A stretch of DNA of 64,000 nucleotides from Eledone cirrhosa (taxonomy: Eukaryota): NCBI GenBank assembly GCA_964016885.1, contig CAXHJY010000883.1, forward strand, positions 1 through 64,000. Reading direction: 5' to 3'. The notes beneath the pieces are model-generated. The model was given only the letters and a program-made list of their open reading frames with translations, did no database searches and was not told where the DNA came from. The position numbers and the translations under genes were made by a program. Of the stretch, positions 14,468-14,767 are shown piece after piece; position 1 is the stretch's first letter, and the number at the start of each line of letters is the position of its first letter.

Positions 14468-14766
14468 CATCGCCATTTCAGAGCACCAACTCTAATTTTC
14501 AATTTTTGCTGTCCGGCAACTGCTCTGTATAATCAGTTCCTGATTATTACTGGAATTCTATAAAAATCCGACATTCATAATTTTCAGCAAACAGGAGGCG
14601 TGCTAGGCTTTGATAAGTACCAACAGTACGAAACAGAGCTCTGTCAGCTTATCTCCCTTGTTTGCTGAAAATAGATGTAAGTGACATAGTCACTATTTAA
14701 AACAATAGCGTAAGGTCTTCAATGCTTTTAATTAGCATACAGTGTATTGCAAAATACACTATATAT

Positions 14767-14767
<1 letters not shown>
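14468..14767 (+). mobile_element. Diverged monomeric relative of the 310-bp unit
   Basis: Colinear blocks ATCGCCATTTCAGAGCA, CCGGCAAC.GCTCT, CAGTTCCTG, TAGCG.AAGGTCTTCAA and CATACAG, bounded by (TA)n. Confidence 0.8.
14604..14651 (+). ncRNA. Hammerhead ribozyme, U3:A8 core variant
   Basis: TAGGCT-TTGATAA-GTAC CAACA GTAC-GAAA-CAGAGCTCTG-TC-AGCTTA, inside the outer stem TTTTCAGCAAACA/TGTTTGCTGAAAA. Confidence 0.85.

Follow-up and report, generated by a model that had tools for sequence, protein, structure and literature searches.

The solitary monomer at 14463 to 14769 (plus strand) of the window, by which we mean the whole 64,000-nucleotide stretch of DNA analyzed here, raises the question of what kind of element it is and why its ribozyme-like core has U and A at positions 3 and 8. 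The monomer is bounded by (TA)n at both ends and resembles in its layout a 310-bp repeat (the 310-bp type) of the same window; we refer to it as the sister unit. We put the probability at about 0.7 that it is a slightly diverged copy of a multicopy, partly tandem hammerhead family with a unit of ~312 bp and a U3:A8 core, and likely a nonautonomous retrozyme copied into (TA)n by Penelope-like machinery.

The sister unit is colinear with the 310-bp type

In a global alignment of the sister unit with the 310-bp unit, 217 of the 339 columns were identical (291 ungapped; z = 15), and the alignment score was 154, compared with a mean of −25 (SD, 12; maximum, 14) for 1,000 dinucleotide shuffles. These values bear out the colinearity that the preliminary description had proposed and had itself put up for refutation. 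The 5′ and 3′ thirds of the sister unit were each significantly similar to the 310-bp unit (0 of 500 shuffles), and the sequence similarity of the ribozyme third was not significant (44 of 500 shuffles). Because sequence alone is not significant for this third, its homology is based on position and structure.

The 5′ hairpin domain (14480 to 14526, plus strand) is common to both types, with eight of nine pairs identical and one pair changed on one side only; it contains most of the ATTTCAGAGCA block together with the CCGGCAAC block. Downstream of the ribozyme domain, and also on the plus strand, lie a 6-bp hairpin with a 3-nt loop (14680 to 14694) that is colinear in both families and in which four of the six pairs differ on both sides, the conserved block AGGTCTTCAA (14713 to 14722), and an 8-bp hairpin (14741 to 14760) in which two of the eight pairs differ on both sides and none is broken. 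The loop of this last hairpin is GCAA in the sister unit and UUCG in the 310-bp type, both of which are unusually stable tetraloops. The hairpin is located immediately upstream of the TA tract that ends the insertions, in the sister unit an unstranded (TA)n microsatellite at 14760 to 14827 attached to its 3′ end. No coding frame of at least 150 aa overlaps the sister unit, and no terminal repeats were found around the monomer.

The conserved blocks at 14475, 14513, and 14713 were found as reported earlier. The accompanying suggestion that they could be RT-recognition or promoter signals fared less well, since two of the three lie within the 5′ hairpin domain, neither a polymerase III A box nor a convincing B box was found, and none of the blocks matched the Penelope-like fragments of the window. 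The hairpin at 14741 to 14760 is the better candidate for a docking signal; the earlier reading had missed both this covarying hairpin by the (TA)n junction and the predicted inactive fold of the monomer described below. A conserved TATA-like word, TTCTATAA, at 14556 to 14563 in the sister unit and at 3180 to 3190 in the 310-bp type, ~85 nt upstream of the predicted cut, is possibly a promoter element, and the hairpin around it differs between the two families. We also considered a tRNA-derived or polymerase III-type SINE and rejected this identity: there were 0 tRNA genes, the A box was absent, and the B-box-like words all had one mismatch, with one of them inside the ribozyme core.

The ribozyme domain has a predicted type I hammerhead with a U3:A8 core

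The ribozyme domain (14581 to 14671, plus strand) is closed by a 15-bp outer stem (14581 to 14595/14657 to 14671) that includes one G·U pair and is longer than the stem named earlier (14581 to 14593/14659 to 14671); relative to the 310-bp type, 8 of these 15 pairs differ on both sides and none is broken. Within it (14597 to 14656, plus strand), we identified stem Ib (14597 to 14599/14654 to 14656), a bulge (14600 to 14603), and stem I (14604 to 14609/14646 to 14651). The 5′ strand of the catalytic core, UUGAUAA (14610 to 14616, plus strand), has U3 at 14610 and A8 at 14615. It is followed on the same strand (14617 to 14633) by a 4-bp stem II (14617 to 14620/14626 to 14629) with a G10.1-C11.1 pair and a 5-nt loop, which is frequently one base longer in family copies, and by GAAA at 14630 to 14633. 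The 12-nt stem III palindrome (14633 to 14644, plus strand) overlaps the GUC at 14643 to 14645, and based on the hammerhead consensus, the cut is predicted 3′ of C14645. All the motifs that the preliminary description had named, i.e., the outer stem, stems I and II, the palindrome, the core, and the GUC, were recovered where it had placed them.

The three stems surround a conserved core with the open end in stem I, the cut site has the form NUH, and 31 of the 31 listed pairs are standard. The required Watson-Crick 3:8 pair can be formed by U14610 and A14615, which, as recognized earlier, is the compensatory form of C3:G8. The sequence of the sister unit has a type I hammerhead motif that is complete and has U3:A8 in its core, with cleavage predicted after C14645. 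A relaxed hammerhead descriptor matched in 4 of 5,000 shuffles of the 300 nt, and the folding energy of the ribozyme domain had a z-score of −6.3 (0 of 200 shuffles). Over the 64-kb window, the descriptor returned 18 hammerhead-like motifs, with 14 in the 310-bp repeat, 1 in the sister unit, and 3 elsewhere. In an Rfam search of the window, nothing reached the gathering level and only chance-level or microsatellite matches appeared at E values up to 10; the hammerhead models matched neither the sister copy nor the 310-bp type at E values up to 10. Because the 310-bp type with its C3:G8 core fails likewise, the Rfam test is uninformative here.

The U3:A8 core by itself is not new, because it is already known in nature. 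U3/A8 hammerheads occur naturally and are active in vitro (PMC3088659), and ~1,300 Schistosoma motifs have U3:A8 (PMC4209133); the preliminary description had overstated the novelty of this core. In a mutational scan, the 3:8 pair was rescued only by the G:C swap, and other double mutants were weak (PMC9901934).

We hand-aligned nine helices between the sister unit and the 310-bp type, using a register of our own. Among the 53 aligned pairs, 29 were the same, 19 had changed on both sides yet still paired, 3 had changed on one side, and 2 were broken, i.e., C14599 in stem Ib of the sister copy and, in the 310-bp type, a U·U at the base of stem II. The covariation reaches outside the ribozyme into the 6-bp hairpin and the 8-bp tetraloop hairpin. 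The earlier statement that the stems differ in sequence and still pair is upheld by the 19 double changes, but it does not extend to the minimum-energy fold of the sister copy, which is not a hammerhead. Perfect inverted arms can be homogenized in DNA, and the pairing changes could in this way reflect arm-to-arm conversion in the inverted repeats of an ordinary satellite or dead retroposon that spread at the DNA level, not selection on RNA; the stem Ib mismatch of the sister copy, which is predicted to be inactive, fits such an origin. However, conversion of the arms would preserve neither the unpaired core, the GAAA, and the bulge nor the 3:8 tertiary pair, and would not exchange one stable tetraloop for another. 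The G·U pairs tolerated on one strand and the low chance frequency of the motif in the shuffles also argue against spread at the DNA level, which we consider very improbable.

Other hammerhead-like sequences were noticed. The 310-bp type itself (3241 to 3254 and equivalents) combines the U·U at the base of stem II with a 6-nt palindrome, like the axolotl HHR_Amex2 as described in PMC7229834. A type I hammerhead-like motif at 22650 to 22700 (plus strand) has a C3:G8 core at 22658 and a 6-nt palindrome and lies inside a longer inverted repeat; it is possibly another retrozyme or a Penelope terminal repeat. At 23106 and 23374 (both minus strand), hammerhead-like motifs with a long stem II are present in an AT-rich segment, the inverted repeat of which also matches 33793 to 34820.

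The sister copy belongs to a multicopy, partly tandem family

Of six sequencing runs from an organism designated organism A, three contain 0.13 to 0.19 of the words of the sister copy; given this low share, organism A could be a species related to that of the window. Four of the six runs were mapped to the sister copy at a likeness of at least 80%. X1 and X2 are contigs from one sample, and X4 and X5 are reduced-representation DNA reads, in which RAD reads sample the copies unevenly. We obtained 1,836 (X1) and 1,952 (X2) matching contigs and 3,722 (X4) and 3,204 (X5) matching reads, most of which were 90 to 99% alike. A head-to-tail joint from 14769 to 14463, with five letters between, was present in 99 reads with 21 starts in X4 and in 61 reads with 17 starts in X5, and tandem copies of ~312 bp therefore exist. 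Together, the 1,836 to 3,722 matches per run and the joints place the sister copy in a multicopy, partly tandem family with a unit of ~312 bp. Many copies, including head-to-tail tandems, are a mark of animal retrozymes and were found in organism A; the window locus itself is a monomer. Covariation, copy number, and tandem joints all support the earlier proposal of a diversified family with a conserved architecture. Summed contig depth, which is not copy number, was ~10 to 50 times higher over 14529 to 14550 and 14738 to 14770 than over the ribozyme, which suggests that related families of higher abundance also carry these two blocks.

Variants in the family were counted position by position and are unphased. 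Among the 40 of 94 variants listed, each of which reaches ~24% or more in some run, none was at 14610 or 14615. We therefore infer that most copies have U3 and A8 and that U3:A8 is probably a trait of the family; the remaining 54 variants could include a C3:G8 minority. C14599, the mismatch in the sister copy, is A in 91 to 97% of the family (748 of 800 reads in X4 and 552 of 609 in X5). Variants that keep or improve a pair include 14606A (G·U to A-U; 30 to 54%), 14658C (G·U to G-C; 44 to 63%), and 14521C (91 to 98%). The variant 14605T (48 to 84%) would leave a U·U in stem I and had no compensating variant among those listed. The sister copy at 14463 to 14769 is one slightly diverged copy of its family.

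A metagenome pattern scan based on two conserved blocks was also performed. Because none of the 120 loci examined out of ~130 aligned to either unit at an E value of 0.01, we regard these loci as chance matches. A scan of viral contigs for the ribozyme pattern gave 0 matches.

Insertion junctions and Penelope-like pieces in the window

The three sense 3′ ends that visibly stop at the TA tract of a unit (4023, 13562, and 14769) all run into (TA)n straight after the tetraloop hairpin. With respect to the predicted cut at 14645, the copy in the DNA is thus permuted, which is what a circular or uncut multimeric template would be expected to give. The 310-bp type, which served as the comparison family, forms tandem arrays at 1 to 1836 (minus strand) and 2066 to 4023 (plus strand) with 12 C3:G8 hammerhead motifs. 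A neighboring insertion of this type at 13562 to 14317 consists of 1.8 units on the minus strand (13562 to 14127) and an inverted, truncated piece on the plus strand (14126 to 14317), and at 14317 it ends ~26 nt beyond the TA tract. Penelope-like elements are described as having inversions, a 30- to 40-bp tail, and (TA)n targets (10.1101/2021.04.23.441226). The sister copy shows the (TA)n junction of this pattern, and the inverted truncated copies and the short tail are found only in its 310-bp-type neighbors. Based on the (TA)n junctions and the inverted copies, we consider a Penelope helper for the sister family probable.

Two further features of these insertions were observed. A 22-nt sequence occurs only at 13522, 14332, and 14410; two of its copies flank the inverted 310-bp-type insertion like a target-site duplication, and the third sits just before the sister copy. 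The junction at 1837 to 2065 between the inverted arrays, which are 99% identical, holds an indel-rich piece (1892 to 2064) that is 91% identical, and this junction is either a Penelope-type inversion or a long-read fold-back artifact.

We assigned the label Penelope-like to pieces of the window by eye, using GIY-YIG motifs and an RT motif that we take to be typical of these elements. The CX2-5CxxC motif was taken from 10.1101/2021.04.23.441226. An insertion at 7495 to 9125 has a GIY-YIG-like frame (7995 to 8663), the GIY-YIG-like end of which is preceded by a C-X4-C-X2-C motif, as well as a partial tandem and an inverted 5′ copy; near 8865, a minimal hammerhead-like motif was read by eye. Relatives of this insertion lie at 18495 to 18830, 35355 to 35892, and 33811 to 34305. 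A Penelope-like reverse transcriptase fragment at 20140 to 21153 (minus strand), cut on both sides by (TA)n, is 35 to 40% identical to 15 proteins of 616 to 734 aa. Pfam returned nothing for three Penelope-like fragments at an E value of 0.01 and only subthreshold noise in 3 of the 15 relatives. The window, which is animal DNA rich in (TA)n, also contains an uninterrupted LINE frame of 1,076 aa with endonuclease and RT at 28230 to 31460 (plus strand), followed by (TA)n. Its first relative with an organism name stood in 4th place among 2,080, was 54% identical, and came from the octopod Argonauta, which hints at a cephalopod source without proving it.

The junctions are open to another reading: instead of an independent circular-RNA retrozyme, the unit could be a pLTR that became detached from a Penelope-like element absent from the window. 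Xenopus retrozymes match pLTRs (repeats, almost all of them Penelope-like, were matched by 24 of 57 families; 10.64898/2026.07.22.740005), and the insertions show the Penelope pattern. Against this origin stand the pure head-to-tail joints in DNA reads and the canonical stems I (6 bp) and II (4 bp), which are unlike the minimal pLTR type. In addition, the Penelope pieces in the window do not match the unit: in a comparison of either unit with seven window segments, there was no significant match (best E value, 0.06). We regard a detached pLTR as improbable and retrozyme identity of the sister family as highly probable. By analogy with known retrozymes, the unit would be transcribed, the transcript would cut itself after C14645, the cut unit would probably circularize, and a Penelope-like reverse transcriptase with a GIY-YIG endonuclease would copy it back into (TA)n tracts.

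Predicted folding of monomer and dimer

In the predicted fold of the sister monomer, an inhibitory helix (14607 to 14639, plus strand) forms between 14607 to 14612, i.e., the end of stem I together with U3, U4, and G5, and 14634 to 14639. The pair 14612-14634 had a probability (p) of 0.99, stems I and III had pairing probabilities of ~0, and the hammerhead fold was 6.5 kcal/mol above the ensemble. The core is predicted to be blocked because the 3′ arm of the palindrome repeats the end of stem I and core positions 3 to 5, except for the U at 3. C3 would strengthen the blocking helix by ~2.9 kcal/mol, U3 giving a U·G in place of a C-G. From these models, the window copy would cut poorly.

Head-to-tail dimers were built in silico and analyzed with constrained ensembles in backgrounds that combine family variants. 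With 14599A and an intact palindrome, palindrome pairing in the dimer had p values of 0.74 to 0.99 in all nine backgrounds, and inhibition of the monomer in the same nine backgrounds had p values of 0.91 to 0.99. With C3:G8, which was modeled in eight of these nine backgrounds, palindrome pairing in the dimer dropped to 0.00 to 0.42. In two-strand cofolds, C3:G8 still permitted the double hammerhead in two of four backgrounds. The unchanged window copy was still inhibited as an in silico tandem dimer (p, 0.99), whereas cofolding of its two isolated domains gave a double hammerhead, with p values of 0.94 for the palindrome and 0.59 for stem I.

These predictions suggest a mechanism in which a single unit would fold as an inactive rod, with the stem III arm complementary to the end of stem I and core positions 3 to 5, and two tandem units would pair their palindromes to form a double hammerhead. 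U3 would weaken the blocking helix by the amount given above, and A8 would preserve the 3:8 pair. Cutting as a multimer and staying intact as a monomer would then be reached by a route other than that of the 310-bp type with its classic tiny stem III. The switch is not universal because 14639A, present in 26 to 53% of the family, relieves the block in models that also have the majority bases (p for stem I in the monomer, 0.83 to 0.99); 14639A alone does not (p, 0.007). As a control, we folded the natural dimer of the 310-bp type, for which known cases lead one to expect a double hammerhead; it was not predicted to form one, the double hammerhead lying 9.6 kcal/mol above the ensemble. Because this control fails, folding energies, which ignore loop-loop contacts, do not stand for activity. 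In 10.64898/2026.07.22.740005, one of nine tested dimers was active, which calls for caution on predicted activity.

The same retrozyme could instead be active as a monomer, with contacts between loops 1 and 2 and magnesium overriding the rod and with U3:A8 as near-neutral compensatory drift. Stem III with 4 bp and stem II starting with G-C are both stronger in the sister unit than in the 310-bp type, and 14639A with majority bases gives a hammerhead-like monomer. U3:A8 arose independently elsewhere, and the observed stem III arm ranked 10th to 12th of 256 palindromic arms for inhibition (~1 in 22), both of which fit this reading. It is harder to reconcile with the block of 2 to 6.5 kcal/mol in palindrome-intact versions, with a palindrome that is perfect over 12 nt, and with the finding that C3:G8 worsened every background tested. 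We rate an active monomer somewhat below even odds. On the models used here, the switch as the reason for U3:A8 is a hypothesis that we rate as less likely than not, and the predicted monomer-off/dimer-on fold with its dependence on U3 is rather unlikely. The combined idea, in which the U3:A8 swap tunes a folding switch (the palindrome silencing the monomer or circle and activating the tandem) and the UUCG/GCAA hairpin docks a Penelope-like RT, we consider unlikely.

Implications

A literature search did not find this family, a cephalopod retrozyme, or a U3:A8 retrozyme; subscription papers and supplements, which lay outside its scope, may include such cases. The sister family appears to be a retrozyme family that has not been reported, and its core is rare but known. 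New and purely predicted is the inactive monomer rod versus the tandem-dimer double hammerhead, dependent on U3. Two questions raised in the literature are why the hammerhead does not cut animal retrozyme circles (PMC7229834) and by what means animal retrozymes are recognized by the helper reverse transcriptase (PMC7229834; 10.64898/2026.07.22.740005). If the switch is true, control of folding would explain a natural core covariation and would provide a second route to dimer-only cleavage in retrozymes; if the docking idea is true, Penelope-like reverse transcriptase would use the UUCG/GCAA hairpin next to the TA tract as its docking signal. Through the predicted block and the covarying junction hairpin, the two families together offer a small and cheap test of both questions. 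Even if the switch fails, a retrozyme family that has apparently not been reported would remain. Its core is rare and escapes both Rfam and standard descriptors built on C3:G8, and cores missed in this way bear on ribozyme counts in animal genomes.

Comparison with known systems

Like animal non-LTR retrozymes (PMC7229834; 10.64898/2026.07.22.740005), which are noncoding, 150 to 450 bp long, and below 50% GC, the sister unit is small, noncoding, and AT-rich, and its type I hammerhead motif is canonical. Also shared are the occurrence as tandem and as solitary copies, a palindromic stem III, and two families per genome, as in axolotl and mussel. The sister unit differs from animal retrozymes in its U3:A8 core and in its 12-nt palindrome with a 4-bp stem III as opposed to 1 to 2 bp. 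The predicted self-pairing block of its core is lacking in most animal retrozymes, with the exception of some mussel circles (PMC7229834). RNA and circles are known for animal retrozymes, whereas the sister family was examined at the DNA level.

Animal retrozymes have been argued to derive from Penelope pLTRs (10.64898/2026.07.22.740005). Neptune/Nematis-type Penelope elements, which have a Zn-finger-like motif before the GIY-YIG (10.1101/2021.04.23.441226), share with the 310-bp-type neighbors the (TA)n junctions, the inverted truncated 5′ copies, and the short tail; the units differ in that they lack a reading frame and do not match the Penelope-like pieces of the window in sequence. The U3-A8 minimal hammerheads of Schistosoma Penelope-like elements (PMC4209133) and the natural U3/A8 hammerheads (PMC3088659) show the same core covariation as the sister unit, and the Schistosoma case also shares its type I topology. 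Most Schistosoma motifs occur singly, and as a group they are minimal and heterogeneous, whereas the sister motif is canonical and part of a tandem-forming unit.

Double hammerheads in satellites have long been known (PMC2837043). Newt satellite 2, axolotl Rtz331/353, and cave-cricket pDo500 (PMC7229834; PMC2837043) have a palindromic stem III through which two repeats make one active unit, and the same is predicted for the sister unit. In those systems, the weakness of the monomer comes from a stem III of insufficient length, whereas a competing helix is its predicted cause in the sister monomer.
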